Positions 22,178 through 44,306 are shown, counted from the stretch's first letter. The stretch: DNA of 64,000 nt from Minisyncoccales bacterium (GCA_049642725.1 JBARPC010000016.1:14838-78837), one strand, 5' to 3'. Program-made: numbers and translations. The notes: generated by a model from the letters alone, not told the origin.

Positions 22178-22191
22178 AAATTCACTATAAT

Positions 22192-26911: not shown

Positions 26912-29900
26912 CTATTCCTTACTGATATCTAAAGCTGCAAAATTAGGCCGGTGGTTGACTTTGAAAGGAGATTCTGTGCCGCCGTTAGCCGCGCCTTGGG
27001 AAGAGGAAGAACACAAAGAGCTGGTATTGTGGTCGCAGACAAAAGCATGCCAGACATTGGATTCGCTATCACCCACTAAAGCTGTATAATTACAGCCGGC
27101 TTCAGACCCGGATGACGTAGAAGAAGATATACACCAATTACCATCGTCACAAGTTGGAGCAGCTTCGTTATTAGCGGTGATATTATTTCCCTTACAAATG
27201 GCTAAATAATAATTATCACTATCACCATCGGTGCCAGTCGCAGTAAAACTAACATTTGAATCCACATCAGTGGGCGAGGTTCCTGAAGACCCGCCATCCG
27301 AAGGACCCGCAGTAAAACTCGGCGCCGTTGCATAGGTGCAGTAGATGGAGTATTTATAATTATTAACATTTGTAGCATCTGTTGGATGACTAGGAGAATC
27401 ATAACTATTAGTACTATCTACATATGCTTGATTAGCATCTCCAGTATCATAATACATACCAGTTGCTACATCTTGAACTATCATCAAAACATAATCAGTT
27501 GAAGCGGTTAGAGTTGGTTCTGTGGAATAACTCGCTGTTTCAAGGGAATCAGTTGACATTGATATATCATATTCATTGACCTCATCGCCCCAAACCCCTA
27601 CAACATACATCTTAGTACCGTCTGAGCTGAAGAATATTCCACGAGGACCTGCTTCCTCCTCTGCCACAGAAAAGCACTGAAGATACACTGCGGTCGAGAC
27701 GTTCCAGGGGGTAGATAAATCATACTCGTTGACGTCAACTCCAAAATTCCCAATAACATACATCTTGGTCCCATCTGGCTTGAAGAATACTGCGTGTGGA
27801 GATTGTTCCTCCTCTGCCACAGAAAAGCACTGAAGATACACTGCGGTAGCAACATTCCAGGGGGTAGATAAATCATACTCGTTGACGTTATCTCCAGAAT
27901 CCCCAATAACGTACATCTTGGTCCCATCTGGCTTGAAGAATACTCCCCTTGGGACTCCTTCTTCATTAGATACAGAAAAGTTCTGAAGATACACTGCGGT
28001 AGCAACATTCCAGGGGGTAGATAAATCATACTCGTTGACGTCAACTCCTATGCGCCCGACAACGTACATCTTGGTCCCATCTGGCTTGAAGAATACTGCC
28101 TGTGGATATGTGTCCTGCCCTGCCACAGAAAAGTTCTGAAGATACACTGCGGTTGATATGTCCCAGGCAAAAGATGGGTCATAAACACTATCACTTATAC
28201 CATTTGTTACTATATTAAGATTACTTGCCAATGCTATAATCCCTTTTATATTTATACCTGAGGAAGGAACTGAATAATGAAATTTTATATTCTGAATAGT
28301 CCCCACATCAGATGGGCTGGTGAATTTAGAACCATACATATAATCAGCGCCTTGAGCATCGTCTAAGGTGCCTCCTTTTGTTTCATACCCAAAAGTCGGG
28401 TCAACACTCACGGGATAAATGGCGTTGTCCAGCCAATTCTGATCAATGGTAATAGTTAGCGTCTTTGTTTGCTCGTCTATATTCAATTCGCCCCAAACTT
28501 CTGTTCCAGCACTATCAATTATTTTCGGTCGGTAAATATGAAACGCTTTGCCTGCTCTGTAATTCTTTCCATTCGGAAATGCCTCGTAGTTTCCTGCCTT
28601 ACTTTCGTGATAAACAGCGTAAGAGTCAACTACATTTTCAGGTTGAAACACACCTTTTTCACTTCTCATATCTGGCTGATAATAAAACTTTAATCCTTTC
28701 GTTTCTATGTCTAAACTAATTATATTACTCGCTGGCTTCTCTTTTAAGATAACCTCAAATTCAAATCCCTCTGCGTGTTCTTCTGTTTTCTCTAACGGAT
28801 AGAAATGGGCTTCTTTTTTCTCTTCTATCCACTTCAGCTTGTTTCCTTGTAATTGGAGATTGCTATCTGTATCTGTGGAGACGGCTGTTGGCAAACTTAC
28901 AGAGACAAAACACTCCTCGTCCCATCTATGAAGTTTAACATAGGGAGCTAGGGGCGAATGTCTTTTGACACCTATTTCAATAACCTCGCCACTTGAAGAT
29001 TTAAGGGTATAAGTTCCATCTTCCATTTCTATAATTGCTTGAGGAGTTATTTCAGTATTATAATTTGGGTCAATGGTTTTTGTTTCACCAGCCCGAAGAA
29101 AAACATTTAAAGATAAAATCAAAAGAGCTTGCCCGTTCTTTCTTTCAATCCACAATTCCGGCTCAAATTCATTAGGAATATCTGAATAATCATAAAAAGA
29201 GAGATATTTCATATTTTGGCTATAGAAAGAAATCTTGCCGGGGCTTTCCAATTTTTGAGGATTTTCAGAAAGAGAAAAAATGCGATTATCCCAGTGTATT
29301 CTTTCTGCATTGATTTTATGTTTCAGGAGAAGGGATAAATTTAAATCCTGCTCGTTGTTATTAGTAAAAGTTAAAGTTTGCTTAATTCTTGATTCATTAT
29401 TCTCAATTCCTAATTCCTTGTAATGCGTAGTTAGGGAAATTTGGGAAAGGTCAACCTCGGTTTTTATGCTATGGCTTTTGTCAACCCCCACACCAAAATC
29501 TTTGGTGTGGGGGTCAATTTGTTTCGTGATTCTATATTCAGGAAGAGATTGAATTTCCATTCCTAAAAAGGATTTTATACTGTTTCCAGATTTTTCCCAA
29601 AAAGAAGGCGGCTGATAAAAATCCTGTTTATTGAAAATCGGCTCATTGGCTTCAATTGACAAACTTAAATCCTGAAATCCTGGTTTTAAATCAGGATATT
29701 CGTCTAAAAACTCATTTTCCAACAAATCAGAAATCAAATACTCATCAATAATTTTTGCGCTGCCAACTATTTCTTCCTTGTTATTTTCTTTTTTAGTTAA
29801 AGGAATATTCTGCGGATAAGAAGTTTCCTGAATTTCTAAATAAGAAGTTCTTAGTTTATAAAAAGGATTTTCTCCTTGTGCAGAAACAACCTGAAAAAAA

Positions 29901-29950
29901 GCAATAATGCCTATGGCTATAATAATAACGCCTAAAAAGTTTTTTTTCAT
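26912..29950 (-). CDS. 1012-aa secreted surface protein with four propeller-like repeats and a Cys-rich C-terminal module
   Basis: Signal peptide. Repeats FFKPDGTKMYV.G..G..VNEYDLSTPWNV.TAVYLQ.FSV. The C-terminal FVCD...S motif module is shared with 23441..25465. Confidence 0.75.
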   Translation of the reverse strand: MKKNFLGVIIIAIGIIAFFQVVSAQGENPFYKLRTSYLEIQETSYPQNIPLTKKENNKEEIVGSAKIIDEYLISDLLENEFLDEYPDLKPGFQDLSLSIEANEPIFNKQDFYQPPSFWEKSGNSIKSFLGMEIQSLPEYRITKQIDPHTKDFGVGVDKSHSIKTEVDLSQISLTTHYKELGIENNESRIKQTLTFTNNNEQDLNLSLLLKHKINAERIHWDNRIFSLSENPQKLESPGKISFYSQNMKYLSFYDYSDIPNEFEPELWIERKNGQALLILSLNVFLRAGETKTIDPNYNTEITPQAIIEMEDGTYTLKSSSGEVIEIGVKRHSPLAPYVKLHRWDEECFVSVSLPTAVSTDTDSNLQLQGNKLKWIEEKKEAHFYPLEKTEEHAEGFEFEVILKEKPASNIISLDIETKGLKFYYQPDMRSEKGVFQPENVVDSYAVYHESKAGNYEAFPNGKNYRAGKAFHIYRPKIIDSAGTEVWGELNIDEQTKTLTITIDQNWLDNAIYPVSVDPTFGYETKGGTLDDAQGADYMYGSKFTSPSDVGTIQNIKFHYSVPSSGINIKGIIALASNLNIVTNGISDSVYDPSFAWDISTAVYLQNFSVAGQDTYPQAVFFKPDGTKMYVVGRIGVDVNEYDLSTPWNVATAVYLQNFSVSNEEGVPRGVFFKPDGTKMYVIGDSGDNVNEYDLSTPWNVATAVYLQCFSVAEEEQSPHAVFFKPDGTKMYVIGNFGVDVNEYDLSTPWNVSTAVYLQCFSVAEEEAGPRGIFFSSDGTKMYVVGVWGDEVNEYDISMSTDSLETASYSTEPTLTASTDYVLMIVQDVATGMYYDTGDANQAYVDSTNSYDSPSHPTDATNVNNYKYSIYCTYATAPSFTAGPSDGGSSGTSPTDVDSNVSFTATGTDGDSDNYYLAICKGNNITANNEAAPTCDDGNWCISSSTSSGSEAGCNYTALVGDSESNVWHAFVCDHNTSSLCSSSSQGAANGGTESPFKVNHRPNFAALDISKE
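27556..28170 (-). repeat. four tandem ~144-bp coding repeats, related to 24285..24745
   Basis: Repeated DNA acatcttggtcccatctggcttgaagaatac... every ~144 bp. Confidence 0.7.
29485..29513. repeat. perfect 13-bp inverted repeat CCCCCACACCAAA-ATC-TTTGGTGTGGGGG inside CDS, flanked by TCAA on both sides
   Basis: Read directly. Encodes DPHTKDFGVGVD in frame. G/C-capped like the 14531 and 35560 elements. Confidence 0.8.
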
Positions 29951-29977
29951 ATAATAAACTTTTCTTCAAGAAAGTTA

Positions 29978-31372
29978 TTAATAATTTGTCTCTATTTCTC
30001 CTTGATTTTTTTCTTCCAGTAATTGTTCTTCTTCTAACTGAACATCTTCTTCAATTAGCTCCTCCATGCCCTCTTGTATGTCTTCTTTTTGGTTTTCCTG
30101 AACATTTCCTTCTTCCGATAATTCTTCTTCATTCTCTGTTTCTGATTCTTGGTTCAAAATTTCTGATTCATTATTTTCTTCCTCTATTTCTTGCTCGTTC
30201 TTGTCTTCCTCATCTAATTCTTCTTTTCCTGCGCCTAAATCTTCATTCTCTGTTTCTTCATTCTCTGTTTCAATTTCTTGATTCGCTTCAACTACCTCGT
30301 CTTCTATTTCTGATTTTTCTTCGCTTCTGTCCATAATCCAATATTCAAAACTTAAATCTTGTTCAGCCGGATTTTCCAAAATAACGCTAAAGGATTTTTC
30401 AGAAACATCTTTTGAAGCTTTCCAAAGAATATTTTCTTCATCAGAAAAAGCAATAAAAACCAAAGAATTCTCTTTTATAGAACTATTTACTATTTTAATC
30501 ACTTTTGCTCCTTGAGAAATAACTGCCTTGCCAGTAATTTGATAATCACTGGCCGGCTCCTCTGGGACCAAACCCTGTTTAACAACTAAAACATCATACA
30601 GAATATCAATCTTGCTTTTCATATTAGCTAAGTTATAAATTATATCTTCCAATTTAGAAAGAATAATATCAATCTTTTCTCCTATATTTGCTAATGCCTG
30701 TTCAATATTGCCAATTTTTTCAGACAAAAAATTTGTCAAATCTTGGAAAATATTAAATAAGCGGGAATCTATTTTAGAGATTTCTCCATCTTCTGAATAA
30801 TTTATATTTTCCAATTGTTCTATATCAAATAAAATTACTACATTAGTTTCATCGCCTAACCTTTCCTTAATCAACTTGGAAAGGTTTTCCCATTGCTCCG
30901 GGGTCAATTCTTCTTCCCCTAAAACCTCTGAAAGTGTGGTTATTTTTTTTCTTGGACACATTTCCTCCTGCCAAACAATTTGATTATCCTCACTCGTATC
31001 GCCTATTGAAATACTAAGCCAAAACGGAACTTGGCTTAAGTCAAGATTAATAAGATTATTACGGCCTAAAAGTATTTTTAAGTTTCCGTTCTTGATAAAA
31101 ATAGCATTATAAAAAACGTGTTCTTCTTCCCAAAGAATATTTCCTTCTTCATGCTGGTCATAAATTCTAAATCTTATATTGTATTTTCCGTCTTCAATTG
31201 GATTTCCTTGAGAATCAGACAAAATACCCTGATACAAAATCCTTAATTTCTTAATTTGTCCAACATCTTCTTCTTGGGCTTTTACCAACTTTCCAAAACT
31301 AAAACTTCCTCCCAATATAAACGAGATAAGAATAATCACTATAACGAACTTTTCAATATTACATCTATTCAT
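29978..31372 (-). CDS. secreted/anchored protein with extremely acidic Glu-rich C-terminal tail
   Basis: N-terminal hydrophobic segment. The C-terminal ~110 aa are dominated by E/N/Q/D. No recognisable family. Confidence 0.55.
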   Translation of the reverse strand: MNRCNIEKFVIVIILISFILGGSFSFGKLVKAQEEDVGQIKKLRILYQGILSDSQGNPIEDGKYNIRFRIYDQHEEGNILWEEEHVFYNAIFIKNGNLKILLGRNNLINLDLSQVPFWLSISIGDTSEDNQIVWQEEMCPRKKITTLSEVLGEEELTPEQWENLSKLIKERLGDETNVVILFDIEQLENINYSEDGEISKIDSRLFNIFQDLTNFLSEKIGNIEQALANIGEKIDIILSKLEDIIYNLANMKSKIDILYDVLVVKQGLVPEEPASDYQITGKAVISQGAKVIKIVNSSIKENSLVFIAFSDEENILWKASKDVSEKSFSVILENPAEQDLSFEYWIMDRSEEKSEIEDEVVEANQEIETENEETENEDLGAGKEELDEEDKNEQEIEEENNESEILNQESETENEEELSEEGNVQENQKEDIQEGMEELIEEDVQLEEEQLLEEKNQGEIETNY

Positions 31373-31391
31373 AATTATAATTCATAATTCC

Positions 31392-32705
31392 TTATTCACT
31401 CTCAATTATCGGCGCTAATATATATATGTATTCCTGATCTTTTGTTTCTTTAAAAATTGGCTTGATAATTCCTGATTTTTTATCTTCATGTAATTCTACT
31501 ATCACTTCATCTGAAAAAGCCCTTTCTATTTTCTTTTTTGTCTCCTCATCTGTTTCAGGAGGAATTACTACTATGCCTTGTTTTGCCGGCTTGGAAGTTT
31601 CTGGACGCGTAACATAGGACCAGATTTTTTGAGCGCCATTAAAAATATAATCTCCTGCAAAACAAACTGAATCTTTTATTTCCTGCCAAGCCAGGAAAAT
31701 TTTATTTTTAACAAAGTCGTTTGTGTTTTGATAACCCTGTCTAAAAACAATACCCGTATTAACTATTTTTTGACCCACAACAAGGGCTTGCTCTCCATAC
31801 CATTGCGTGAATCTCTGAAAAATACTTACACTATACTTAAGGTCGTCCCCTGCTTTAACACCTGCTTCAGCTAAAAAAGAATAAGTGTTTTTGCCTGTCA
31901 GTAAAACACTTGCTCCTAAGTTATAGAAATAGCCTTTTGTTTCTTTTTCTAATTTATCTGAATTTACTATTTCTCCTTTTCTCCATTTGTATACTGAATT
32001 ATTTATCTCTATTAAAAATTGATTGAGAAATGTTGTTGAATTTGCTAAAGAGGTATCTAATACTGCTTTTGAGTTTATTACAGAACTGCCTATTATTGTT
32101 GTTAGTTTATCTAATGAATTATTTGCTTTTTGAGAAATAATTGACAGTCCCTTAGAACCAGTGCCCGCCACAAAACTCATAGTGTTTTTAAAATCTTGGA
32201 CCGGATGCAAATCAATTTCAGGAATTGATATGTTTGGTATTGATAATTCAGGTAATTCAGGAAGCGACGGTTTTTTATTGGAAACTATACCAGATAATTC
32301 TTGGCTGGTTTTTGTTAGACCATCCTTGACTGACCAAATAGCATCTTTACTAAAGACAATACCAGTGAAGATTAAACAAAAAACCAAAACTCCTGCTATT
32401 GCGTATCGCATAGCATATCGGAATTTTGGCTGGTTAAATAGATTTGCCATGGTTTCTACTATACCAAGCTTTGGAAAGTTTATCTCTTTATTCAGGGCTT
32501 TTTTAAAATCTGCTTTTTCGGCTTCATGCTTTTTGGAATTGTGCTTTAAATAATCATCAAGCCATTCTTTCTTTGTTACCCAATTTCTGCCGAATTTAAT
32601 CGCCTTTAGTTTTCCTTGCCTCGCTCTCAATGACAAATACTCCTGTGAATAATCACAGTACCTTGTTGCTTTCATTAATGATATATAACCGTTCTTTTCG
32701 CTCAT
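31392..32705 (-). CDS. membrane protein with N-terminal excisionase/MerR-like helix-turn-helix
   Basis: SLMKATRYCDYSQEYLSLRARQGKLKAIKFGRNWVTKKEWLDDYL is an HTH_17-like motif, followed by a TM segment. Start set to ATG 32705..32703 rather than the TTG at 32723. Confidence 0.6.
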   Translation of the reverse strand: MSEKNGYISLMKATRYCDYSQEYLSLRARQGKLKAIKFGRNWVTKKEWLDDYLKHNSKKHEAEKADFKKALNKEINFPKLGIVETMANLFNQPKFRYAMRYAIAGVLVFCLIFTGIVFSKDAIWSVKDGLTKTSQELSGIVSNKKPSLPELPELSIPNISIPEIDLHPVQDFKNTMSFVAGTGSKGLSIISQKANNSLDKLTTIIGSSVINSKAVLDTSLANSTTFLNQFLIEINNSVYKWRKGEIVNSDKLEKETKGYFYNLGASVLLTGKNTYSFLAEAGVKAGDDLKYSVSIFQRFTQWYGEQALVVGQKIVNTGIVFRQGYQNTNDFVKNKIFLAWQEIKDSVCFAGDYIFNGAQKIWSYVTRPETSKPAKQGIVVIPPETDEETKKKIERAFSDEVIVELHEDKKSGIIKPIFKETKDQEYIYILAPIIESE

Positions 32706-32784
32706 AAATTTAATAATATTCAATATTGTCCGATATTTAAATTATTACTTTATTTTCTTATATTAAAAAGTCCTTGTCAATCAG

Positions 32785-32798
32785 GAAACTGTGGATAA
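32785..32798 (-). promoter_or_regulatory. perfect DnaA box within the 14-mer TTATCCACAGTTTC, 9 nt upstream of TTGACA (32780..32775)
   Basis: Minus strand reads TTATCCACAGTTTCCTGATTGACAAGG. Same 14-mer as 17038..17051. Confidence 0.4.
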
Positions 32799-32813
32799 CT
32801 ATCGGACATAAAA

Positions 32814-32837
32814 AACCTTGTTTTAACAAGCAAGGTT
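32814..32837 (-). terminator. rho-independent terminator after the AbiEii-like gene
   Basis: Minus strand reads AACCTTG-CTTGTTAAAA-CAAGGTT followed by TTTTTAT. Confidence 0.6.
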
Positions 32838-32863
32838 TGGGAATAAAATATTAAGCACTGACA

Positions 32864-33484
32864 TTAACTATCAACTATCTTTTTTACTTCTTCTTTGAGT
32901 TTATTTTTAATTCCTGACCAAGAAGCTTTTTTTATCATTTCGGGTATCGGCTCTACGTCGGCTGGCTCAAAATAAATTAAACTCTTTAAAATGTGAAATC
33001 GATTATATTGAATGCCTTGATATTTTTTATCGAATAAATTAAGAAGCTTTTCAAGGGAATATTTTTCAAGTAAAAAATATAAATCTATAAAATCTTTTTT
33101 AGCTCCCCTACTAGAAATAGCATCTATCTTCATACATATAATATCACGTTCATCGGCTAACTCAATTTTTTTAAATTCAATAAAAGGAAATAATAGTTTG
33201 TATGGATAAATAAAAAAACTAACCTTGACTCCATCCAACTGGCAATTTAGCGTGTTATCATCTTCTGATTCTATTTTAAAATTATTAAAAGCAAAAAGTT
33301 TTCTTTTCAAAGAAATTAAAGAAACTTTTTTTTGTGAAAACCAATCCAAATCAATTGACTTTCGATGTCCTAACTGTAAAGCCAAGGCAGTGCCACCTGC
33401 TAAATAAAAATTTTGGACTTCTTTGATATTGCTTAACGCTTCCAAAACGCGTTTGGTTTTAATGTTGATAACTTCTTGATGCAT
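32864..33484 (-). CDS. nucleotidyltransferase AbiEii/AbiGii-like toxin family protein
   Basis: FYLAGGTALALQLGHRKSIDLDWFS and the later D-rich motifs resemble the AbiEii nucleotidyltransferase fold signature. Confidence 0.65.
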   Translation of the reverse strand: MHQEVINIKTKRVLEALSNIKEVQNFYLAGGTALALQLGHRKSIDLDWFSQKKVSLISLKRKLFAFNNFKIESEDDNTLNCQLDGVKVSFFIYPYKLLFPFIEFKKIELADERDIICMKIDAISSRGAKKDFIDLYFLLEKYSLEKLLNLFDKKYQGIQYNRFHILKSLIYFEPADVEPIPEMIKKASWSGIKNKLKEEVKKIVDS

Positions 33485-33744
33485 AAAAATGAATTAATGG
33501 GGATATTAAATATTAAACTCCAAAAATTTATTGTTTTTTTATTAGTATAATTTATCTTAACAGCTGTTTTTTTTATTTTTTTAAAACCATATATTTCCTG
33601 AAGAATTTTATAATCTTTTTCATCGCCAAAAGACAGGACTCTTTCAATAATAAAATCAGCGTTTTTTTTGTAATCTAAATCTTTAAAATGAATATCCCAA
33701 AAAAGAGTTTTATTCAGCTGTTTTAGCTTTTTTTGTAATATCAT
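33433..33744 (-). CDS. small partner ORF upstream of the AbiEii-like gene (candidate antitoxin)
   Basis: LFWDIHFKDLDYKKNADFIIERVLSFGDEKDYKILQEIYG is a pattern I recall seeing upstream of AbiEii-like genes. Overlaps the downstream gene by 52 nt. Confidence 0.4.
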   Translation of the reverse strand: MILQKKLKQLNKTLFWDIHFKDLDYKKNADFIIERVLSFGDEKDYKILQEIYGFKKIKKTAVKINYTNKKTINFWSLIFNIPINSFLCIKKLSTLKPNAFWKR

Positions 33745-33768
33745 ATTTATACTATCATAACATAGTTA

Positions 33769-34203
33769 TTAGTTCTTGTCATATAAAGTTATCTTTCTAA
33801 TATTTTTATTAATGAACTTGAATTTTATTTTGATAATGTTTTTAGGCAGGATTTTTTCTATTTTCTCTGGCCATTCTATAACAATAATGCTTTTTGGCTG
33901 GGAAATAATTTCTTTAAATCCGATATCTAAAATTTCCTCTGGTGTCTGGATACGGTAGCAATCAATATGGAAAAAATTTTCGTATCTTCGCATTATTACA
34001 AAGGTCGGGCTTGTAATTCTTTCCTTAAAGCCAAGCCCCTTGGCGAAACCCTGGACAAAGGTTGTTTTGCCTGCGCCTAAATCGCCGCTTAAAGCGATTA
34101 CTAAAGCATCTTTCTTTTGAGGAAGTTTTAGAATTTTTTTTGCCAAGCTCTCTCCAAGTTTTTTTGTCTGCCGGGTACTTATTGTGATATATTTTTTTTC
34201 CAC
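33769..34203 (-). CDS. tsaE: tRNA t6A biosynthesis ATPase TsaE
   Basis: ALSGDLGAGKTTFVQGFAKGLG...SPTF...HIDCYR is the TsaE/YjeE signature. Confidence 0.85.
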   Translation of the reverse strand: MEKKYITISTRQTKKLGESLAKKILKLPQKKDALVIALSGDLGAGKTTFVQGFAKGLGFKERITSPTFVIMRRYENFFHIDCYRIQTPEEILDIGFKEIISQPKSIIVIEWPEKIEKILPKNIIKIKFKFINKNIRKITLYDKN

Positions 34204-34260
34204 ATTGACGAGATTGTTTATTTAAGTTAATTTGAAATAATACTTACTCATTTCTATAAT

Positions 34261-35559
34261 ATGAATAAAAAAATAACTGGTCAAATCTTTATTTCAGATG
34301 AAGCACTTTCTGAGATAGAAAAGAAAGTAAAAAATCTTTCTGATTTCAAAAAAAACATTGAATCAGTTTTACAAGAAAATATTACTGAAGTTTTAGAAAA
34401 TATTTTAGCAGGCGCCATAAATCTAAATGCTTCAGATATTCATATTGAACCAAGAAAAAAAGAAACAAAAATCAGAATAAGAATTGACGGCATACTCCAA
34501 GAGGTTGTCTCTTTAGATAAAAAAATATTTGAATCCATTCTTTCTAGAATCAAACTTTTAAGCGCTCTGAAGCTTAATGTTTCTGACCGGCCGCAAGACG
34601 GCAGATTTTCTATTATTTCCAAACAGGAAATAATAGAAATTAGAGTCTCTTCCCTGCCCTCTGAATACGGAGAGTCAATTGTTTTAAGAATTTTAAATCC
34701 TAAATCATTAATTGAGATTGAAAGTTTAGGACTAAGGAAAGATCTGCTTGAACTTTTCTTAAAAGAAATAAAAAAGCCAAATGGAATGATTATTGTTACC
34801 GGACCTACCGGCTCTGGAAAAACAACTACTCTCTATGCTTTTCTTAAAAGGATTAAAAGCCCGGAAGTTAAAGTTATAACAATTGAAGACCCTATTGAAT
34901 ACCATCTCAAAGGTATTTCCCAGACACAAGTAAGACCGGAAAAAGGATACGACTTTGCTAACGGCCTCCGTTCTATTATGAGGCAGGACCCAGACGCAAT
35001 TCTGGTTGGAGAAATCAGGGATTTAGAAACAACTAAAATTGCCATCCAATCAGCGCTTACCGGCCATTTAGTTTTGACTACCTTACATACAAATGACGCT
35101 GCCGGCACTATTGCCCGTTTAATAAATTTAGGCGCGAAGCCGGCAAATATTGGACCAGCAGTAAATATGATTATTGCGCAAAGATTGGTGAGAAAAATCT
35201 GTCCAAAATGCGCTAAATTAGAAAAAGCCCCGCCCTCAATTTTAAATAAATTAAAAAGAGAATTGAAAGGAATTCCCAAAGAGATAAAAATTCCTAAAAT
35301 TGGTGATGGGTTGAAAATTCTAAAACCAAAGGGCTGTGAAGATTGTCATAACTCTGGATATAAAGGAAGGGCTGGTATTTTTGAAGCCATTTTGATTGAT
35401 GATGAAATGGAAAACTTTATTTTTAAAAACCCTTCAATCGCTGCTTTAAGAAAAAAAGCATTTAAAAAAGGAATGACAACTATGAAGCAAGATGGTTTTT
35501 TAAAAGTTTTAAATCAAGAAACAAACATAGAGGAAATAGAAAGGGTGGCTGGCGAGTAA
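34261..35559 (+). CDS. pilB: type IV pilus/type II secretion ATPase (PilB/GspE family, short N-terminus)
   Basis: Walker A GPTGSGKTTTLY, Asp and His boxes (RQDPDAILVGEIRD, GHLVLTTLHTN), tetracysteine CPKC...CEDC motif. Confidence 0.85.
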   Translation: MNKKITGQIFISDEALSEIEKKVKNLSDFKKNIESVLQENITEVLENILAGAINLNASDIHIEPRKKETKIRIRIDGILQEVVSLDKKIFESILSRIKLLSALKLNVSDRPQDGRFSIISKQEIIEIRVSSLPSEYGESIVLRILNPKSLIEIESLGLRKDLLELFLKEIKKPNGMIIVTGPTGSGKTTTLYAFLKRIKSPEVKVITIEDPIEYHLKGISQTQVRPEKGYDFANGLRSIMRQDPDAILVGEIRDLETTKIAIQSALTGHLVLTTLHTNDAAGTIARLINLGAKPANIGPAVNMIIAQRLVRKICPKCAKLEKAPPSILNKLKRELKGIPKEIKIPKIGDGLKILKPKGCEDCHNSGYKGRAGIFEAILIDDEMENFIFKNPSIAALRKKAFKKGMTTMKQDGFLKVLNQETNIEEIERVAGE

Positions 35560-35642
35560 CCCCCCACCACTTTGTAAAACGCCATCTGAAATTTCCTAAA
35601 TATTTTTTTATCTATTTTGACTTTTGGCAAAGTGGTGGGGGG
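35560..35642. repeat. 15-bp perfect inverted repeat CCCCCCACCACTTTG ... CAAAGTGGTGGGGGG separated by 53 nt
   Basis: Arms at 35560..35574 and 35628..35642, starting the base after the pilB stop. The arm is the same as in the intragenic palindrome 14531..14565. Confidence 0.8.
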
Positions 35643-35645
35643 TGA

Positions 35646-35778
35646 GATAGCCTGGAGCCGGGGACAGGACTTCAGCTTGAGAACTTAAAGTTCAGAATTT
35701 CTTTGAGGAATAAGCCAGCATTACCTGAATTATCCATTAACTAAAAGAAATTCCTGTGTCCCCAGCTCCAGGCTATCT
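35646..35778. mobile_element. 133-bp MITE-like element with 22-bp terminal inverted repeats (1 mismatch) and an internal 10-bp stem
   Basis: AGATAGCCTGGAGCCGGGGACA (35646..35667) versus TGTCCCCAGCTCCAGGCTATCT (35757..35778). Inner pair GAATTTCTTT/AAAGAAATTC. No ORF. Confidence 0.5.
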
Positions 35779-35802
35779 TTGCCTTTAATTATAATAAATA
35801 AT

Positions 35803-36810
35803 ATGAATTTGTCAACCCCTATACCCTCTAAAGAGGACGAAGTTTTAGATAACGCTTTACGGCCTAAAAACTGGAAAGAATATGTTGGTCAGGAAAAATT
35901 AAAGAAAAATCTAAGGATAATTATTGAAGCAGCTAAACAAAGAAATGAAGCGCCTGACCACTTGCTTTTCTACGGAAACCCTGGCTTAGGAAAAAGCACT
36001 ATCTCACATCTTATTGCTAAAGAGATGAAAACTGATATTAAAACTACCTCTGGCCCGGCTATTGAAAAAGCTGGTGATTTAGTTTCTATTTTAACTAATC
36101 TTAGTGATGGTGATGTTCTTTTTATTGACGAAATTCATCGTTTAAACAAGGTTTGTGAAGAAATATTTTATCCAGCAATGGAGGATTTTAAGTTAAATCT
36201 TATTTTAGGAAAAGGCCCAATGGCGCGAACAATGGAAATGAAACTGCCCAGATTTACTTTAATAGGAGCGACAACCCGTTTAGCTCTTTTGTCGTCGCCT
36301 TTAAGAAACCGTTTTGGAGCTATTTTCCAAATTAATTTTTATAACTCCAAAGATATTGAAAAAATTATTGAGTATTCCGGTAAGACTTTAAATATAGCAA
36401 TAGAGCCAAAAGCGATAACAATAATTTCTAAACGCTCACGTTTTACTCCGCGAGTAGCTAACCGCTTATTGAAAAGAATTAGAGATTTCGCTCAAGTAGA
36501 AGGCGACGGAATTATTGATGAAAAAATCACCAAATCAGCTATGAAATTTTTAGAAATTGATGGGTTTGGATTAGAGCCAGGAGACAGAAAAATTATTAAA
36601 ACAATTATTAAAAAATTTGAAGGAGGACCGGTTGGCTTAAAAACTCTGTCAGCCGCTACTTCTGAAGAAGAAGATACTATTTTAGATATCTATGAACCTT
36701 ACTTAATGCAATTAGGATTTATAGAAAGAACTCCCAAAGGAAGAATGGCTACTTTGAATGCTTATAAATATTTTGGAATAAAATATAAAAAGGAACAGAA
36801 TCTGCTTTAG
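35803..36810 (+). CDS. ruvB: Holliday junction helicase RuvB
   Basis: LRPKNWKEYVGQEK...LLFYGNPGLGKSTISHLIA...LFIDEIHRL. Start set at ATG 35803 rather than the TTG at 35779. Confidence 0.9.
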   Translation: MNLSTPIPSKEDEVLDNALRPKNWKEYVGQEKLKKNLRIIIEAAKQRNEAPDHLLFYGNPGLGKSTISHLIAKEMKTDIKTTSGPAIEKAGDLVSILTNLSDGDVLFIDEIHRLNKVCEEIFYPAMEDFKLNLILGKGPMARTMEMKLPRFTLIGATTRLALLSSPLRNRFGAIFQINFYNSKDIEKIIEYSGKTLNIAIEPKAITIISKRSRFTPRVANRLLKRIRDFAQVEGDGIIDEKITKSAMKFLEIDGFGLEPGDRKIIKTIIKKFEGGPVGLKTLSAATSEEEDTILDIYEPYLMQLGFIERTPKGRMATLNAYKYFGIKYKKEQNLL

Positions 36811-36877
36811 TTTTAAACAATTTCTAAACATTTTCTGGACAGTTTTTAAACAGTTTTTTTGATAGTTGATAGATAAG

Positions 36878-38065
36878 ATGAAAAAAACTTGGAAAATTTG
36901 TTTTTGTTCTTTATTATATGTTGTTTGTTCTTTGTTCTTTATGCTTGGCTTAGCTAAGCATAATTTTGTCTCAGCCTATAAATCGCTTGATGTAGTAATC
37001 AATGAAGTTTGCTGGATGGGCACAAAGGCCTCACATAGTGACGAATGGATTGAGTTGTATAATAATAGCGATGCTGATATAAATCTTGATGGCTGGGTAT
37101 TAAAAGCTAATGACAAAAGCCCGGAAATTGAACTAATGGGTATTATTTTAGGTAAAAGTTTTTATATTTTAGAAAGAACTGATGATGATAGTGCGGCTGA
37201 AATTTCTGCTGATATAATTTATAAAGGAGCTTTAAATAATAAAGGAGAAATTTTAGAACTTTTTGATGGCGATAAAAATCTGATAGATAAAGTGGATTGC
37301 GGCAAAGGATGGTTTGCCGGTGACAATAAAACAAAACAAACAATGGAAAAGCTTGTTGAAGTCGGACTTCAACAAGCTCATTGGCAGACAAGCCAAAAAC
37401 CAGGCGGAACACCAAAAACTAAAAACAGTGATGGAAATGCTATGGAGGCCGAAACTCCTATGGAGGTTCGGCCTCAAAGCGAGCCGCCTCAAAACGAGCA
37501 TTATCCTTCTGGAATAATTATCAATGAAATACTGGCCTCGCCAGAGGGCCCTGACGCGGAAAATGAATGGATAGAAATTTTTAATGAAAATAATTTTGAT
37601 ACTGATATCTCTGGCTGGAAAATTTCTGACACTGTTGGTGGTATTAAGAGTTATACTTTTCCAATAGGAACAAAAATCCCAGGAAAAGAATTTTTGGTTT
37701 TAGAGCGTCCGGAAACAAAAATTACTTTAAATAACAATGGTGATGGATTAAAAATCTTTAATCCTAATGGAAAAATCGTTGATGAAATAAACTTTGAAAA
37801 AGCGACCTTAGGACAATCATATAATAAATTTGAATCTGAATGGCAATGGTCAGAAAATTTAACGCCTGGCGCTGTTAATAGTTCAGGAAAACATACGGAG
37901 AGCGAGTTTCTATTAGATGGTTCCAGCGAAGCAAGAATCAGCCAAGGATTTAAACAACTCTACGAGAACAGTTCTCGTAGAATGGCTGTTGTAATTGCTC
38001 TAATAATTGCTTTTTGTTCAGCTATTATTATTTTAATTTTAAAAAAGAATTTGAAAAGTAATTAA
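36878..38065 (+). CDS. membrane-anchored protein with two lamin-tail (LTD) domains
   Basis: VVINEVCWMGTKASHSDEWIELYNNSDADINLDGWVL and IIINEILASPEGPDAENEWIEIFNENNFDTDISGWKI are LTD signatures. N- and C-terminal hydrophobic segments. Confidence 0.75.
   Translation: MKKTWKICFCSLLYVVCSLFFMLGLAKHNFVSAYKSLDVVINEVCWMGTKASHSDEWIELYNNSDADINLDGWVLKANDKSPEIELMGIILGKSFYILERTDDDSAAEISADIIYKGALNNKGEILELFDGDKNLIDKVDCGKGWFAGDNKTKQTMEKLVEVGLQQAHWQTSQKPGGTPKTKNSDGNAMEAETPMEVRPQSEPPQNEHYPSGIIINEILASPEGPDAENEWIEIFNENNFDTDISGWKISDTVGGIKSYTFPIGTKIPGKEFLVLERPETKITLNNNGDGLKIFNPNGKIVDEINFEKATLGQSYNKFESEWQWSENLTPGAVNSSGKHTESEFLLDGSSEARISQGFKQLYENSSRRMAVVIALIIAFCSAIIILILKKNLKSN
37350..37378. repeat. perfect palindrome AGCTTGTTGAAGTC-G-GACTTCAACAAGCT (family copy 2, longest) inside CDS
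   Basis: Read directly. Encodes KLVEVGLQQA. Confidence 0.9.
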
Positions 38066-38093
38066 AAATTTAGTAAGATAAAATTATAATAAC

Positions 38094-38816
38094 ATGAGCG
38101 GACATTCTCATTTTAGTTCAATAAAACATAAAAAAGCAATTACCGATGCCAAGCGCGGCAAAATTTTCTCTAAAATAGCTCGGCAGATTTTGATTGCCGT
38201 AAAAGAAAAAGGAAACGACCCAGAAACCAACTCTAGTTTGCGTTTAGTTATTGAAAAAGCCAGGTCAGTAAATATGCCGAAAGATAATATAGAAAAAGCT
38301 ATTAAAAGAGGAACTGGAAGCACAGAAGGAGAAAAACTAGAAGAAGTAATTTTTGAAGCATATGGACCTGCTGGAACAGCTATCATTATTGAAGGAATTA
38401 CTGACAATAAAAACAGAACCCTGGGAGAGATCAGGCAGGTTTTAAATCAGGCAGGCGGTAAAATGGCTGGAGAAGGTTCGGTTAAGTGGATGTTTGAAAG
38501 AAAAGGAGCTATAACAGTCAACAATGAACAAAAAACAATAAACAAAGAAGATTTAGAGATGAAAGTGATTGAAGCGGGGGCAGATGATACTTATTGGCAT
38601 AATGGCATATTAGATGTCTATACTAAGCCAGAGGGACTGGAAAAAGTTAAAAAAAATCTTGAAGCGCAAAATATTGAAATTGAATCTGCATCGTTGGATT
38701 GGGTCGCTAAAGATATGATTGAATTAGAAGAAAAAGACAAGCAAAAAATAGAAAAATTATTTGAATTATTAGATGAAAACGAAGCGGTACAGGAAATATA
38801 CTCAAACATCTCGTAA
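38094..38816 (+). CDS. yebC: YebC/PmpR family DNA-binding regulator
   Basis: MSGHSHFSSIKHKKAITDAKRGKIFSKIARQI is the family's hallmark N-terminus. Confidence 0.9.
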   Translation: MSGHSHFSSIKHKKAITDAKRGKIFSKIARQILIAVKEKGNDPETNSSLRLVIEKARSVNMPKDNIEKAIKRGTGSTEGEKLEEVIFEAYGPAGTAIIIEGITDNKNRTLGEIRQVLNQAGGKMAGEGSVKWMFERKGAITVNNEQKTINKEDLEMKVIEAGADDTYWHNGILDVYTKPEGLEKVKKNLEAQNIEIESASLDWVAKDMIELEEKDKQKIEKLFELLDENEAVQEIYSNIS

Positions 38817-38833
38817 TTTTAACATTTGTTAGT

Positions 38834-39343
38834 ATGATTATACTCGGCATTGACCCAGGAACAGCCAACACGGGGTTTGGCGTGGTTAGTAATATAAAAT
38901 CTAAAAACCAAAATAGACTTAGGTGTTTGGATTACGGTTGCATTAAAACATCACCGAAATTGACTGACGGGGCGCGGCTTGAAAAAATAAACACAGAACT
39001 TAAAAAAATAATTAAGAAATATCAACCAAAAGTGATGGCCGTAGAAAATGTGTATTTCTTTAAAAACTTAAAAACTGCTTTTCCAGTAAGCCAGGCAAAA
39101 GGAGTAATATTATTTACAGCTGCCAAGAAAAAAATTCCGGTTTATGAATTCACTCCTCTTCAAGTTAAAATGGCGATTACGGGTTATGGAAAAGCAGATA
39201 AAAAACAAATCCAAAAAATGATAAAGGTTATTCTTAATCTAAAAGAACCACCAAGACCAGATGACGCTGCTGATGCTTTAGCAATAGCAGTTTGTTCTAT
39301 TAATTTTATAAAAACCCTTAAAGGGGTTGACAAACTTGCTTAA
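38834..39343 (+). CDS. ruvC: Holliday junction resolvase RuvC
   Basis: IILGIDPGTANTGFGVV...VENVYF...DAADALAIAVC catalytic motifs. Confidence 0.9.
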   Translation: MIILGIDPGTANTGFGVVSNIKSKNQNRLRCLDYGCIKTSPKLTDGARLEKINTELKKIIKKYQPKVMAVENVYFFKNLKTAFPVSQAKGVILFTAAKKKIPVYEFTPLQVKMAITGYGKADKKQIQKMIKVILNLKEPPRPDDAADALAIAVCSINFIKTLKGVDKLA

Positions 39344-39451
39344 AAAAATATAATAGAAACTGTAGATGGAAAGGTCGATGATAATAGAGTAGAAATTAAA
39401 AATCACTCTTTTTTTATTTAATATAAAGAGAGTGATATTCTTTAAAAAATT

Positions 39452-39703
39452 ATGATTTACGAATTTATTAATCAAGATACAGAAGAAGGAGGAGAAAAAA
39501 CCACTGAAGAGGAAACTCCTGCTTCTACTGAAAAAGAAACTGGTTCTGAAGAAGTAACTAGCCAGGATACAGGAGAAGGAACTCCTGAAGAAGGAGCCAC
39601 TGAAGCTCCTGCTGAGGGAGAAAAAACTCCTGAAGCTCCTGCTGAAGGAGAAGAAAAAGAAGGTGAAGAACAGAAAAGCGAAGAAGAAACTCCGGTTGTA
39701 TAG
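39452..39703 (+). CDS. small highly acidic Glu/Thr/Pro-rich protein of unknown function
   Basis: 83-aa ORF with repeated EAPAEGE units, followed by a strong terminator. Low-complexity, so coding status is uncertain. Confidence 0.45.
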   Translation: MIYEFINQDTEEGGEKTTEEETPASTEKETGSEEVTSQDTGEGTPEEGATEAPAEGEKTPEAPAEGEEKEGEEQKSEEETPVV

Positions 39704-39706
39704 TTT

Positions 39707-39732
39707 AAAAATCCCGCCTCTGCGGGATTTTT
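39707..39732. terminator. bidirectional rho-independent terminator between convergent genes
   Basis: AAAAATCCCGC-CTCT-GCGGGATTTTT. Confidence 0.8.
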
Positions 39733-39738
39733 AAATAT

Positions 39739-40923
39739 TTAAGTATAACTAATAATTTTAACAAATTTTCTTTTCCCTACTTGAATTATCATATCTTTCT
39801 TTGTTTTAATTTTTGCCTGCCAGTCATTTTGAATTTTATTATCTATTCTAACTCCTTTTTGCAAAACCAATCTCTTGGCTTCTGATTTTGAGGAAGTTAG
39901 TTTTATTTTCACCAACAAGTCCAAAATATTCCAATTGCCAAGCTTTAATTTTATCACAGGAATTTTTAAAGGTATTTTTTTTTCTTTAAAAATTCTATTA
40001 AATTCTTTTTCTGCCTTTTCTGCTATTTTTTTACTATAAAGAAGCAAGATAATTTCTTTAGCCAATTTTGCCTTTGCATCTCTTGGATTTATTATTTTTT
40101 TAAGTTCGGACATCGGAACATTTGTACAAAGTTCAAAGGCAGTATTTATTAATTCATCCGGCCAGTTCATTATCCTCCCATATATTTCCTTCGGTTTTTC
40201 GTTTAAGTTAATTATATTTCCCTCGGTTTTTCCCATTTTCTCCCCTTTAAAACTAACTAAAAGTTTTGTCGCCAAAACAAATTTTTCCTTATTCTTTAGT
40301 TTCTTAGCTAATGTCCTTCCGGCCAGCATATTAAAGGTTTGGTCGTTCCCCCCAATTTCTAAATCAACATCCATTGAAACGCTATCGTAGGCCTGAAATA
40401 TTGGATACAAAAACTCATGTACGCGAATATCTCTACCTGCTTTGATTCGTCTCTGAAACATATCTCTCTCCAATAATCTGGCAACTGTAAAATTGGAGGA
40501 CAGTTCAAGCATGTCTTTAGGTTTTAATTTGTTAGTCCATTCTTCATTGTGTAAAAATCTAACATTTGCCTTCTTAAGGTCTAAAATTTTGCCAATCTGT
40601 TTTTTATAATCTTTAGCATTTACTAAAACCTGTTCTCGAGTTAATATTTTTCTTGTCGCATTCTTATCAGTCGGATCACCAATAGTGGCTGTGAAGTCCC
40701 CTATTAAAACAATCGTTTCATGCCCCAAATCCTGAAATTGACGTAGCTTTCTTAAAACCGCCAAATGGCCTATATGAAGCCTACCTGTTGGGTCTATACC
40801 ATTATAAACCCTGAGTTTTTTACCGGATTTTAAAACTTTTTCTAACGCCTTGCGGTTAGGATAAATTGTTTCCACACCACGCACTAAAATCTCTTCAATT
40901 TTTTTAGAGTTAGTGTTTATCAT
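39739..40923 (-). CDS. tyrS: tyrosyl-tRNA synthetase
   Basis: HIGH motif (GRLHIGHL), KMGKT (KMSKS), C-terminal S4-like domain. Start moved to internal Met MINTNSKK. Confidence 0.9.
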   Translation of the reverse strand: MINTNSKKIEEILVRGVETIYPNRKALEKVLKSGKKLRVYNGIDPTGRLHIGHLAVLRKLRQFQDLGHETIVLIGDFTATIGDPTDKNATRKILTREQVLVNAKDYKKQIGKILDLKKANVRFLHNEEWTNKLKPKDMLELSSNFTVARLLERDMFQRRIKAGRDIRVHEFLYPIFQAYDSVSMDVDLEIGGNDQTFNMLAGRTLAKKLKNKEKFVLATKLLVSFKGEKMGKTEGNIINLNEKPKEIYGRIMNWPDELINTAFELCTNVPMSELKKIINPRDAKAKLAKEIILLLYSKKIAEKAEKEFNRIFKEKKIPLKIPVIKLKLGNWNILDLLVKIKLTSSKSEAKRLVLQKGVRIDNKIQNDWQAKIKTKKDMIIQVGKRKFVKIISYT

Positions 40924-40989
40924 TTTCTTATCATAGCAAAAGTATTTTAATTTGCCAAATAGAACATAATCTATTAAAGTTAAAAGTAT

Positions 40990-42972
40990 ATGGCTAAAAG
41001 AGTATATCATCGGAGAATATTTGGAGAAAATAAAAAAATAAGGCGAATTAAAAAATTGGCAAAATTTTTAGTTTTTTGTTTTAGTTTTTTGTTTTTTGTT
41101 TTTTGTTTTTTGTTTTTTTATTATGCCAAAGACCTGCCCAGGCCGGAAAACTTTATGGAAAAGCAATTTATTGAATCAACGAAAATATATGACCGGACTG
41201 GCGAAGTTCTTTTATATAATATCTATGGAGAAGAAAAAAGAACCATTATAGCTTTGGACGCAGTGCCAGAACAATTAATCCAAGCTATCATCACAGCTGA
41301 AGACAGAAATTTTTACAAACATCATGGCATTGATTACAGAGGCGTTATGCGGGCGATATTAGTAAATCTTAAATTAAAAAAACCGGCTCAGGGCGGCTCT
41401 ACTATTACACAGCAATTAATCAGGTCCAGTTTTTTAACTCTCAGTAAAACAGCTGAAAGAAAAATAAGGGAAATTATTTTAACCATAGAATTAGAAAGAA
41501 AATATACTAAGGACCAAATAATGGAATGGTATTTAAATCAGGTTCCTTTTGGCTCTAATGCTTACGGCGTAGAAGCGGCCAGCCAGACCTATTTTAAAAA
41601 ATCGGTTCAGGACTTATCTTTGGAAGAATCAGCTATTCTTGCCTCGCTCGTCTGCGGGCCGAGCCGTCTCTCTCCTTATGGTCAAAATGAAGACAGGTTA
41701 TTAGGGAGAAAAGATTATGTTTTAAAAGGAATGGCAGAGGAGGGATATATATCAAAAGAAGAAGCAGAAGAGGCAAAGAAAAGAGAAATATCCTTTGCTC
41801 CTAAACTTGTGGAAATCAAAGCTCCTCATTTTACCCTTTATGTTAAAAGCCAATTAGAAAGAGAATACGAAAGAGAAGATGATAGTAATTTTTTAAAAGA
41901 AAACGGATTAAAGGTTTATACTTCTTTGGATTGGGAGCTTCAGCATTTAGCAGAAACAGCAGTAGAAGATAGAGCAAAAATTAATGAAGGCTATCAGGCC
42001 CATAATGCTTCCTTGGTTGCCTTAAATCCGAAAAACGGCGAGGTTTTAGCAATGGTTGGCTCAAAAAATTATTTTGGCGAATCTTTTCCTGAAGGATGTA
42101 ATCCGGAAAAGGACTGTCTGTTTACACCCAAAGTGAATATTGCTATTTACGGCATTGGCAGACAACCCGGTTCTGCTTTTAAACCATTTGTTTATGTTAC
42201 TGCTTTTCAAAACGGCTATGACGGTGAAACCACAGTAATAGATGAAGAAACAAACTTTGGTCTTTGGGGAGATAAAGAATATATTCCCCAAAACTATGAT
42301 AATAAATTTAGAGGAGAAGTAACCTTAAGAGAGGCATTGGCGCAATCAATTAATGTGCCATCAGTAAAAGTTTTAGTTAATTTTTGCGGCTCTACGGTGC
42401 AGGAAAGTATTGAAAATAGCGTTAAAACCGCTCAAAAGCTGGGGATTACTACTTTAAGACCTTCTTACGGACCAGCCATTGTTTTGGGCGGCTGGGAGGT
42501 AAGATTGTTAGAAATGACTTCTGCTTATGGCGTTTTTGCTACCGAAGGATTAAAGGTACCGCCAGTAACTATTTTAAGAATTGAAGACGCGCAGGGTAAT
42601 ATAATAAAAGAAAATAAAAAAACTCCTCAAAGAGTTTTAGGTATTCAAGAGACACGACTCCTCAATAATATTCTTTCAGACAATGAAGCCAGGGCCCCTC
42701 TTTTTGGATATAATTCGTCTCTATATATTAAAGATTTTAATACAGCTGCTAAAACAGGAACAACCGAGGAGTATAAAGACGCCTGGACTATCGGCTACAG
42801 CCCTTCCATTGTATGCGGCGTTTGGGCCGGAAACAATGATAATTCTCCAACAAATAAAAAACCAGGTGTTACCCTGTCTGCGCCTATTTGGAAGGCATTT
42901 ATGTCAGAAGCTCTTAAAAAATTCCCTAAAGAAAATTTTACTCCTCCGGAATTTTTAGAAAAACAATTTTAA
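40990..42972 (+). CDS. class A penicillin-binding protein (glycosyltransferase 51 plus transpeptidase)
   Basis: EDRNFYKHHGID, GGSTITQQL (GT51). SAFKPF (SxxK), SINVPS (SxN), KTGTT. Confidence 0.9.
   Translation: MAKRVYHRRIFGENKKIRRIKKLAKFLVFCFSFLFFVFCFLFFYYAKDLPRPENFMEKQFIESTKIYDRTGEVLLYNIYGEEKRTIIALDAVPEQLIQAIITAEDRNFYKHHGIDYRGVMRAILVNLKLKKPAQGGSTITQQLIRSSFLTLSKTAERKIREIILTIELERKYTKDQIMEWYLNQVPFGSNAYGVEAASQTYFKKSVQDLSLEESAILASLVCGPSRLSPYGQNEDRLLGRKDYVLKGMAEEGYISKEEAEEAKKREISFAPKLVEIKAPHFTLYVKSQLEREYEREDDSNFLKENGLKVYTSLDWELQHLAETAVEDRAKINEGYQAHNASLVALNPKNGEVLAMVGSKNYFGESFPEGCNPEKDCLFTPKVNIAIYGIGRQPGSAFKPFVYVTAFQNGYDGETTVIDEETNFGLWGDKEYIPQNYDNKFRGEVTLREALAQSINVPSVKVLVNFCGSTVQESIENSVKTAQKLGITTLRPSYGPAIVLGGWEVRLLEMTSAYGVFATEGLKVPPVTILRIEDAQGNIIKENKKTPQRVLGIQETRLLNNILSDNEARAPLFGYNSSLYIKDFNTAAKTGTTEEYKDAWTIGYSPSIVCGVWAGNNDNSPTNKKPGVTLSAPIWKAFMSEALKKFPKENFTPPEFLEKQF
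41071..41119 (+). repeat. heptanucleotide tandem repeat (GTTTTTT)x5, preceded by two degenerate units, inside the PBP signal-anchor codons
   Basis: G at 41084, 41091, 41098, 41105 and 41112, each followed by six T. Confidence 0.85.
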
Positions 42973-44138: not shown

Positions 44139-44306
44139 ATTATTAATATTAATTAAATAAATTTTATTATTGTTATTATATATGTGTATATCTTTATTTT
44201 TAATTTAATTCTTCTATAAATAACTTGTGTAAAATTTGTTTATTAAAAATGGTTTAAAATTTCTTTTTTTATAATTCAGATTTTCTTCACTTTTTCTTCA
44301 CTTTTT

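Follow-up and report, generated by a model that had tools for sequence, protein, structure and literature searches.

What occupies the space between pilB and ruvB in a member of the Minisyncoccales? We address this question in a 64,000-nucleotide stretch of DNA from such a bacterium (GCA_049642725.1 JBARPC010000016.1:14838-78837; hereafter the window, meaning the whole stretch that was analysed), where the two genes are separated by a 219-bp spacer (35560-35778). A preliminary description had noted that this spacer consists of two long inverted-repeat units and had suggested nested MITEs (transposable elements that are miniature and carry inverted repeats), or else a structured RNA or attenuator. 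We find that the inverted repeats are real and far above chance, but that they are two mutually unrelated features. The unit next to ruvB (element 2) is read here as a minus-strand small-RNA gene and the unit next to pilB (element 1) as a recent GC-rich palindromic insertion, a joint reading that we consider probable on the evidence of comparative sequence analysis.

All of the repeats were confirmed at the positions first reported. The spacer begins directly after the pilB stop codon, and this TAA is itself made by the insertion of element 1. The 15-bp arms of element 1 (35560-35574 and 35628-35642) enclose an AT-rich interior of 53 nt, as described, and can be lengthened to 16 perfect bp (Table 1) and to 26 nt at 85% complementarity. 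For element 2, the 22-bp arms and their one mismatch are as reported, and the enclosed length is 90 nt, not 89; its inner 10-bp stem (35695-35704 and 35744-35753) is also present and grows to 13 nt at 92%. A palindrome within it, GAACTT-A-AAGTTC, exists but draws no support from covariation, the conserved third helix being ACUUUA/UGAAGU on the minus strand. By shuffling, 0.00 occurrences of the 22-mer of element 2 are expected by chance. What does not hold is the idea of nesting: the two elements are adjacent and without relation to each other.

Homologues of RuvB place the window in Candidatus Parcubacteria, within the Candidate Phyla Radiation (CPR/Patescibacteria), near Nealsonbacteria. The same strain appears in two Logan assemblies (L001 and L002, identity at least 99.9%), the first of which covers window positions 28071-41113, and an exact-protein look-up of the RuvB that starts at TTG gave no record. 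The closest distinct genome, GCA_023131895.1 (locus L003), has a RuvB that is 91% identical, with pilB and ruvB DNA about 87% identical and third codon positions about 75%. Further pilB-spacer-ruvB loci were taken from RuvB homologues at 76-80% identity (L021, L022, L025 and L027) and from a genome scan at 64-69% (L008-L015 and L018), and a metagenome DNA-pattern scan gave two distinct true loci, adding L031, together with one chance match (L029). That genome scan, made with RuvB on genome contigs, yielded 13 loci in all, each at 69% identity or less, that served as distant homologues. The 16-genome set used below comprises Parcubacteria/Patescibacteria loci whose RuvB is 64-91% identical.

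Element 2 lies between pilB and the next gene in all 16 of the CPR loci examined. The gene order runs from tsaE to pilB, which points toward the RNA gene and is faced by it, and then through ruvB, a gene encoding an LTD protein, yebC and ruvC, all in one direction; L031 lacks ruvB but keeps the RNA beside pilB, the start of the LTD gene abutting the RNA promoter. L003 has element 2 in the same position, with 93% identity to the window, as against 87% for flanking coding DNA. This conservation above that of silent sites, together with the presence of the element in L003, argues that it is old and under purifying selection. A covariance model built from seq­uences of seven loci recovers element 2 with E-values of 1e-8 to 1e-36 (1e-8 to 1e-21 at distant CPR loci, always antisense to ruvB) and finds it as a single copy in the window and in each locus. 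The model found no copy at two non-CPR bacterial RuvB loci, nor at two archaeal loci with weak RuvB matches.

The predicted fold is a three-way junction with a long closing stem (P1) and two hairpins (P2 and P3; Table 1). P1 measures 20-22 bp in close relatives and 13-15 bp in distant ones, while P2 carries an asymmetric, conserved internal loop and has a tip that is 27 nt longer in L021. A covariance analysis of homologous spacers had been proposed at the outset as a check, and its outcome favors a structured RNA. In an unguided MAFFT alignment of seven sequences, 94.3% of cells are paired, versus no more than 57% with the partners slid, and double-sided changes occur in 21 of 50 pairs versus 10.5±2.1 in shuffles (0/500). 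Aligning all 16 sequences by MAFFT only left P1 and P3 misaligned and recovered 19 pairs; hence a model-guided alignment was used for the full set, with the seven-sequence MAFFT alignment as an unbiased control. The guided alignment has 91.9% of cells paired, again versus at most 57%, with double-sided changes in 37 of 50 pairs, 149 compensatory cells versus 47±6 shuffled (0/500), and support for all four helices.

In regard to strand, the preliminary description had remarked that the single mismatch of the 22-bp stem would be C·A when read from the plus strand and a G·U pair in a minus-strand transcript. This remark is correct and proved to be the key to the orientation of element 2. Across the 16 sequences, G·U cells number 96 for the minus strand versus 23 that are plus-only (47 versus 9 in the MAFFT-only alignment), and the RNAalifold consensus has 51 pairs and -53 kcal/mol on the minus strand versus 33 pairs and -35.6 kcal/mol on the plus strand. 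We assign the element to the minus strand because of this G·U bias, the loss of fold on the plus strand, and the minus-strand promoter and terminators described below. A functional plus strand, acting as a terminator, insulator or processing site at the pilB 3' end or as a ruvB attenuator or leader, might be suspected from the good fold that the plus strand forms too (z = -7.3 against shuffles, with -8.3 for the minus strand), from the moderately U-rich sequence past the stem, and from one plus-strand terminator-like site called in L012. However, the G·U count opposes it, its consensus fold is 18 pairs and 17 kcal/mol poorer, it is the other strand that carries the conserved promoter and terminators, and a terminator would not need P2 and P3. 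We regard such a role as very unlikely. Thus, the structured RNA of the preliminary description stands, but as a minus-strand gene with a promoter of its own, and with terminators seen in distant copies, rather than as the attenuator also suggested there, which would belong to the plus-strand pilB-ruvB transcript.

The promoter assigned to this gene is a perfect sigma-70-type match (Table 1), found with the same 12/12 agreement in L003, and perfect TTGACA-N16-TATAAT sites number only three on the two strands of the window (128 kb). The form TTGACA-N16-17-TAnnAT precedes the RNA at all 16 loci; TTGACA is invariant in every one, whether it falls in coding sequence, as in some genomes, or outside it, and the distance from promoter to P1 is longer in five loci (16-67 nt). 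At the 3' end, P1 is followed directly by UUUUU in L011-L014 and by an extra GC hairpin and U-tract in L008-L010, L018 and L015, and same-strand hairpin and U-tract terminators were called by program in L010, L015 and L012. The sequence ATGAATTTGTCAACCCCTA is common to the window (35779-35830) and L003 (9957-10030), a conservation explained by its being the RNA promoter. In L003 the corresponding ATG opens an ORF (open reading frame) of only 11 codons, RuvB beginning 24 nt downstream of that ATG. In the window, the ORF start assigned automatically, TTG 35779, is probably not the true start of ruvB, and the ORF annotated from it runs over the RNA promoter.

Element 2 is non-coding, without a conserved reading frame. 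The earlier statement that no ORF is present was nearly right, in that a 21-codon minus-strand ORF (MDNSGNAGLFLKEILNFKFSS) exists but is unconserved among homologues; the ORF from the conserved AUG ranges from 3 to more than 30 codons. One could imagine a small protein gene within a structured mRNA, such as one for a type I toxin-like peptide, since the window and L003 have identical ORFs, the two substitutions within being synonymous and stop-to-stop, and an AUG occupies that position in 14 of 16 copies. Yet the ORF shrinks to 3-5 codons in L014, L009, L018 and L008, is frame-shifted in L027 and has no AUG in L021 or L031, its substitutions track base pairs rather than codons, and the peptide is not hydrophobic. 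We give a small protein scarcely any credence.

The possibility that both units are MITEs, nested or adjacent, can be weighed on the same comparisons. Bacterial MITEs are represented by elements such as Correia (CREE) and RUP, and element 2 does possess long terminal inverted repeats, stands beside an element 1 that acts as a mobile palindrome, and coincides at its borders with breaks in Logan contigs. Against this, it occurs once per locus, and all 16 genomes have it at the same orthologous position; it is conserved above silent sites, and its arms change in sequence yet stay complementary, the opposite of what transposase-recognized ends would do. We reject a MITE identity for element 2, and find it highly improbable that both elements are MITEs. 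The MITE option fits element 1: the closest relative has an empty site, the window a second copy and another genome a near-identical one. As for the contig breaks themselves, those of independent samples coincide exactly with a border of element 2 or lie within the element (window 35645; the starts of L007 and L026); the strong hairpin may have affected assembly or coverage, or the populations may be heterogeneous.

Does element 2 belong to a known RNA family? At the Rfam 15 gathering threshold there were zero matches in the window and nine loci, and a search of three copies against all 4227 models at E<=10 returned generic hairpin (microRNA-type) matches only, inconsistent between copies. In its length (125-160 nt), strong consensus promoter, end-pairing terminal stem and high conservation within a reduced-genome clade, element 2 resembles 6S RNA, 4.5S/SRP (signal recognition particle) RNA and bacterial Y RNA, but its shape is that of a three-way junction, not a rod, and it matches none of these families in Rfam. 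We reject 6S RNA because the large central bubble (with a 5' side of roughly 10 nt or longer) is missing, the 5' junction strand being 2-5 nt, so that the RNA cannot mimic an open promoter; neither RF00013 nor 6S-Flavo gave a match. SRP RNA is likewise rejected, there being no helix-8 motif, that is, no GNRA tetraloop or AGCA/GGAA loops, and no supporting Rfam match. The structures of 5S rRNA, the thiamine pyrophosphate (TPP) riboswitch, and the hammerhead and twister ribozymes are unfitting and also without a supporting match.

A better likeness is to the orphan structured non-coding RNA motifs found in bacteria by comparative genomics (Weinberg et al. 2010, 2017; PMC2864571, PMC5737381). Like these, element 2 is intergenic, lineage-restricted, defined by covariation, equipped with its own promoter and, in distant copies, a terminator, and without an assigned function. 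Unlike them, it matches no Rfam 15 model, and its host clade, Parcubacteria/Patescibacteria, goes unmentioned in the catalogue papers that we found. Our literature searches found no paper on such an RNA, nor on the palindromes discussed below in CPR bacteria. Judged by these comparisons, element 2 is a well-supported new family of structured small RNA in Parcubacteria, previously uncatalogued.

The function of this RNA, which we infer, is a more conjectural matter than its identity as a gene, its strand, fold, promoter, conservation and non-coding nature. That RNA and promoter are kept at one locus down to 64% RuvB identity, with helices maintained, in genomes that shed non-essential DNA, points to an important function. 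Transcription from the TTGACA-16-TATAAT promoter would begin 2-3 nt before the 5' arm of P1, and so perfect a consensus predicts strong expression of an RNA of about 135 nt with its ends locked in P1. We propose a stable, abundant, trans-acting RNA of the ribonucleoprotein (RNP) type, whose protein partner would read the conserved shape and internal loop. The long P1 would protect the ends or act as a processing stem for RNase III, for which a stem of 20-22 bp is long enough as a substrate. Transcription of a gene that is convergent with pilB, from a promoter over the start of the next gene, would probably also limit or uncouple read-through from pilB to ruvB.

Alternatively, and as the main rival to this proposal, element 2 may be a cis-antisense RNA that pairs with the fully matching stretch between the cistrons of read-through pilB-ruvB mRNA (by kissing loops, with RNase III) or acts by convergent interference, controlling ruvB (or the LTD gene, yebC or ruvC) apart from pilB. 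Cis-encoded antisense RNAs include the CopA/RNAI-type plasmid regulators and chromosomal, intercistronic ones such as GadY, and element 2 shares with them its position opposite the operon strand and between cistrons, its stable stem-loop, and a promoter that overlaps the start of the downstream gene. The RNA gene and pilB converge at every locus, and the gene that follows diverges from the RNA gene; the start codon of that following gene lies in or beside the RNA promoter throughout, even at L031, where a different gene occupies the place. Furthermore, no convincing plus-strand ruvB promoter was found in the spacer, so ruvB is probably transcribed through the RNA gene. However, the RNA is antisense to its own gene only and overlaps no coding sequence or recognizable ribosome-binding site, both of its ends are sequestered by the 20-22-bp closing stem, and covariation keeps four helices and the internal loop over deep divergence, beyond what antisense pairing needs; the conserved position may just mirror conserved synteny. 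We judge cis-antisense control to be unlikely.

Element 1 has a different history. Comparison with strains that lack the insert had been suggested in the preliminary description, and relatives allow such a comparison: element 1 is missing at the orthologous site, between the pilB stop and element 2, in L003-L006. In L003, pilB ends GGC GAA TAG, this TAG being part of element 2's first arm, and in the window about 91 bp are inserted between GGCGA(G) and (A)TAGCC, the junction supplying the new stop of pilB. The insertion landed 1-3 nt past the 3' end of the RNA, and on a minus-strand transcript it folds as an independent hairpin beside the RNA. A terminator search of 35300-36000 called none on either strand. 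At element 1 the tails are UGAGAU (plus) and UUACUC (minus), and with a 53-nt loop and no U-tract terminator called, it does not fit an intrinsic terminator.

The arm of element 1 (CCCCCCACCACTTT) recurs at 14531-14565 (0.02 occurrences expected by chance) as a perfect palindrome within a 5'-3' exonuclease gene; we refer to these sequences as family A. The exonuclease copy adds eight residues to a variable loop relative to orthologues, leaving the ORF intact and the flanks conserved, and no target duplication is evident there. At the corresponding position, GCA_023131895.1 has an empty site with the ancestral sequence intact. The more distant GCA_023130975.1 carries a palindrome identical at 35 of 36 positions in the same exonuclease loop, where the right border is common, the left border differs and the flanking codons have diverged. 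The arms of family A, and of a second family (B) described below, are missing from all of the relatives' loci except L033 and L034. Element 1 would be best described as a recent insertion of a selfish hairpin similar to MITEs or Rickettsia palindromic elements (RPEs), not part of the RNA and belonging to a lineage-restricted palindromic family.

RPEs and bacterial MITEs have been reviewed (PMC10969869). Element 1 and its relatives are like them in being short, non-coding and hairpin-forming, in occurring both between genes and in frame in variable loops of proteins, and in having empty sites in related genomes; the eight residues of the exonuclease copy and six residues of a family B copy in the LTD protein (relative to L003) amount to RPE-like in-frame insertions without gene disruption. 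Unlike RPEs, which are about 100-150 bp long, the elements described here measure 35-91 bp, have GC-rich arms in an AT-rich genome, and reside in a CPR host. The GC clusters of yeast mitochondrial DNA are GC-rich mobile palindromes in an AT-rich compact genome and can sit in frame in genes, but they belong to an entirely different genetic system, and the resemblance is a lead only.

Several observations weigh against our joint reading. For the RNA, the conserved position could reflect conserved synteny alone, and fitting the 16-sequence alignment to the covariance model tilts it to the modelled structure, the independent seven-sequence alignment showing the same trend. No terminator was called after P1 in the window or in L003, where the tails are only CUAUCU and CUAUU and termination is unexplained; no partner protein is predicted. 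L021, L022 and L025 have 45-67 nt between promoter and P1, including a hairpin and U-run that would terminate transcription before the RNA. For element 1, a BLAST search of the 53-nt interior gave AT-rich chance matches only, and there is no clear target-site duplication, TA being possible at 35557-58 and 35648-49 with borders ambiguous by 1-2 nt. Only three members of family A were seen, no transposase or autonomous partner is known for it, and a scan of viral contigs for the palindrome gave 0 matches. With respect to the extra leader of the three loci just named (L021 353-420, L022 790-835 and L025 1628-1683; plus-strand, approximate coordinates), its hairpin and U-run share the motif AAGCUUUUUUAUUUU, and it may represent an attenuator or a further hairpin insertion.

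Our findings bear on a group that makes up a large share of bacterial diversity, the CPR/Patescibacteria, which have genomes of about 1 Mb and are mostly uncultured, and whose non-coding RNA repertoire is, to our knowledge, essentially uncharted. They should be relevant to RNA biologists and CPR genomicists alike. The covariance model makes the RNA searchable in all CPR genomes, and phylogenetic profiling could then find its partner. Long inverted repeats beside genes in such genomes can be RNA genes on the opposite strand and not terminators or MITEs. The in-frame palindromes would extend the RPE phenomenon, in which selfish hairpins remodel protein loops, to a second group of bacteria with reduced genomes. 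A bolder combined proposal is that element 2 founds a class of housekeeping RNP RNA in Parcubacteria/Patescibacteria, a fifth beside rRNA/tRNA, RNase P RNA, SRP RNA and tmRNA and with a dedicated protein partner, and that the lineage hosts undescribed short GC-rich palindromes that insert in frame into essential genes (those for the 5'-3' exonuclease and KsgA) in the manner of RPEs. We advance it tentatively, as possible rather than probable.

Table 1. Positions of the two spacer elements, their parts and related features, in window coordinates.
Feature	Position	Strand	Remarks
Element 2, predicted structured small-RNA gene, three-way junction, ~134-135 nt	35645-35778	-	Covariance-model match 35641-35780, 140.7 bits; covariation in 16 genomes; G·U strand asymmetry
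P1, 5' strand (RNA sense)	35757-35778	-	Pairs with 35645-35666; helix 1, changes on both sides in 19/20 pairs
P1, 3' strand (RNA sense)	35645-35666	-	Fold and covariation
P2, long hairpin: P2a, conserved internal loop (..AAUGG / CCUC..), P2b, variable apical loop	35694-35754	-	Helices 2 and 3
P3, short hairpin (ACUUUA / UGAAGU), variable loop	35669-35691	-	Helix 4
Putative sigma-70-type promoter of the RNA gene	35788-35815	-	TTGACA 35815-35810, TATAAT 35793-35788, 16-nt spacer; 12/12 consensus match; -10 box ends 9 nt before P1
Element 1, ~91-bp GC-armed palindromic insertion (family A)	35556-35647		Borders ambiguous by 1-2 nt
Element 1, left arm ACCCCCCACCACTTTG	35559-35574		Inverted-repeat search
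Element 1, right arm CAAAGTGGTGGGGGGT	35628-35643		Inverted-repeat search
Second family A copy, perfect 35-bp palindrome	14531-14565		In frame in 5'-3' exonuclease ORF (14027-14932, minus); encodes TPHHFYSKSGGG
pilB-like type II/IV secretion ATPase (T2SSE)	34261-35559	+	Pfam T2SSE E=7e-121; TAA stop 35557-35559 from element 1 junction
ruvB	35803-36810	+	Start codon within spacer of opposite-strand RNA promoter; N-terminus not conserved with L003

Palindromes are frequent elsewhere in the window as well. Perfect ones with arms of at least 12 bp and loops of at most 8 nt number six versus about 0.25 expected, and five of the six are inside ORFs. Family B, of the form (AGC)TTGTTGAAGTC-S-GACTTCAACAA(GCT), has three copies (20187-20211, 37350-37378 and 57682-57702), all within ORFs and in the same frame (VEVGLQQ), which encode a 449-aa secreted protein, the LTD protein and the KsgA/RsmA rRNA dimethylase; the copy in the LTD protein is the six-residue insertion mentioned above. 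The palindromes at 29484, 34607, 35560 and 37350 are reproduced in the independent assembly L001. The first of these, perfect and GC-rich (ACCCCCACACCAAA-ATC-TTTGGTGTGGGGGT, 29484-29514), is read in frame as DPHTKDFGVGV within a beta-propeller-like ORF of 1012 aa (26912-29950, minus) and has an arm that resembles family A. A perfect 33-bp AT-rich palindrome (TTTCTATTATTTCC-AAACA-GGAAATAATAGAAA, 34607-34639) inside pilB encodes FSIISKQEIIEI, and further perfect in-ORF palindromes occur at 19145-19166, in an AAA_14/DUF4143 ATPase, and at 37959-37981, in the LTD protein. L003 shares the palindrome at 37959, and its LTD gene has an extra one of its own (L003 11464-11495 and 12188-12214); in-ORF palindromes are thus not limited to the strain of the window.

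Some further features of the window deserve mention. The second perfect promoter sequence (53556-53597) has a 10-bp inverted repeat, CAAGTGCTAT-N7-ATAGCACTTG, that overlaps the -10 box in the manner of an operator. The third (39327-39354) lies just past ruvC and ahead of a small gene of 83 aa, with a strong terminator at 39704-39735 that is conserved in L003 (13917-13954). Adjoining tsaE, in the window and in L001, is an AbiEii/DUF6922 toxin-antitoxin-like pair (32864-33744), which appears to be a strain-specific insertion because it is missing at the L003 counterpart; the AbiEii gene is called differently in L002. A search of the window for tRNA and tmRNA genes found none. The 1012-aa ORF also contains a direct repeat of about 83 bp at 90% identity (27765-27847 versus 28071-28153), and a local GC-rich island spans 22001-24000 (45% GC versus a 34% average). 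Cumulative GC skew is lowest near 34 kb (about 32000-36000), at the switch in gene orientation from tsaE (minus) to pilB (plus), and dnaN and dnaA lie at about 43-45.7 kb by synteny with L003 (window 40891-45664); a replication origin is probably in the neighbourhood of these two intervals.

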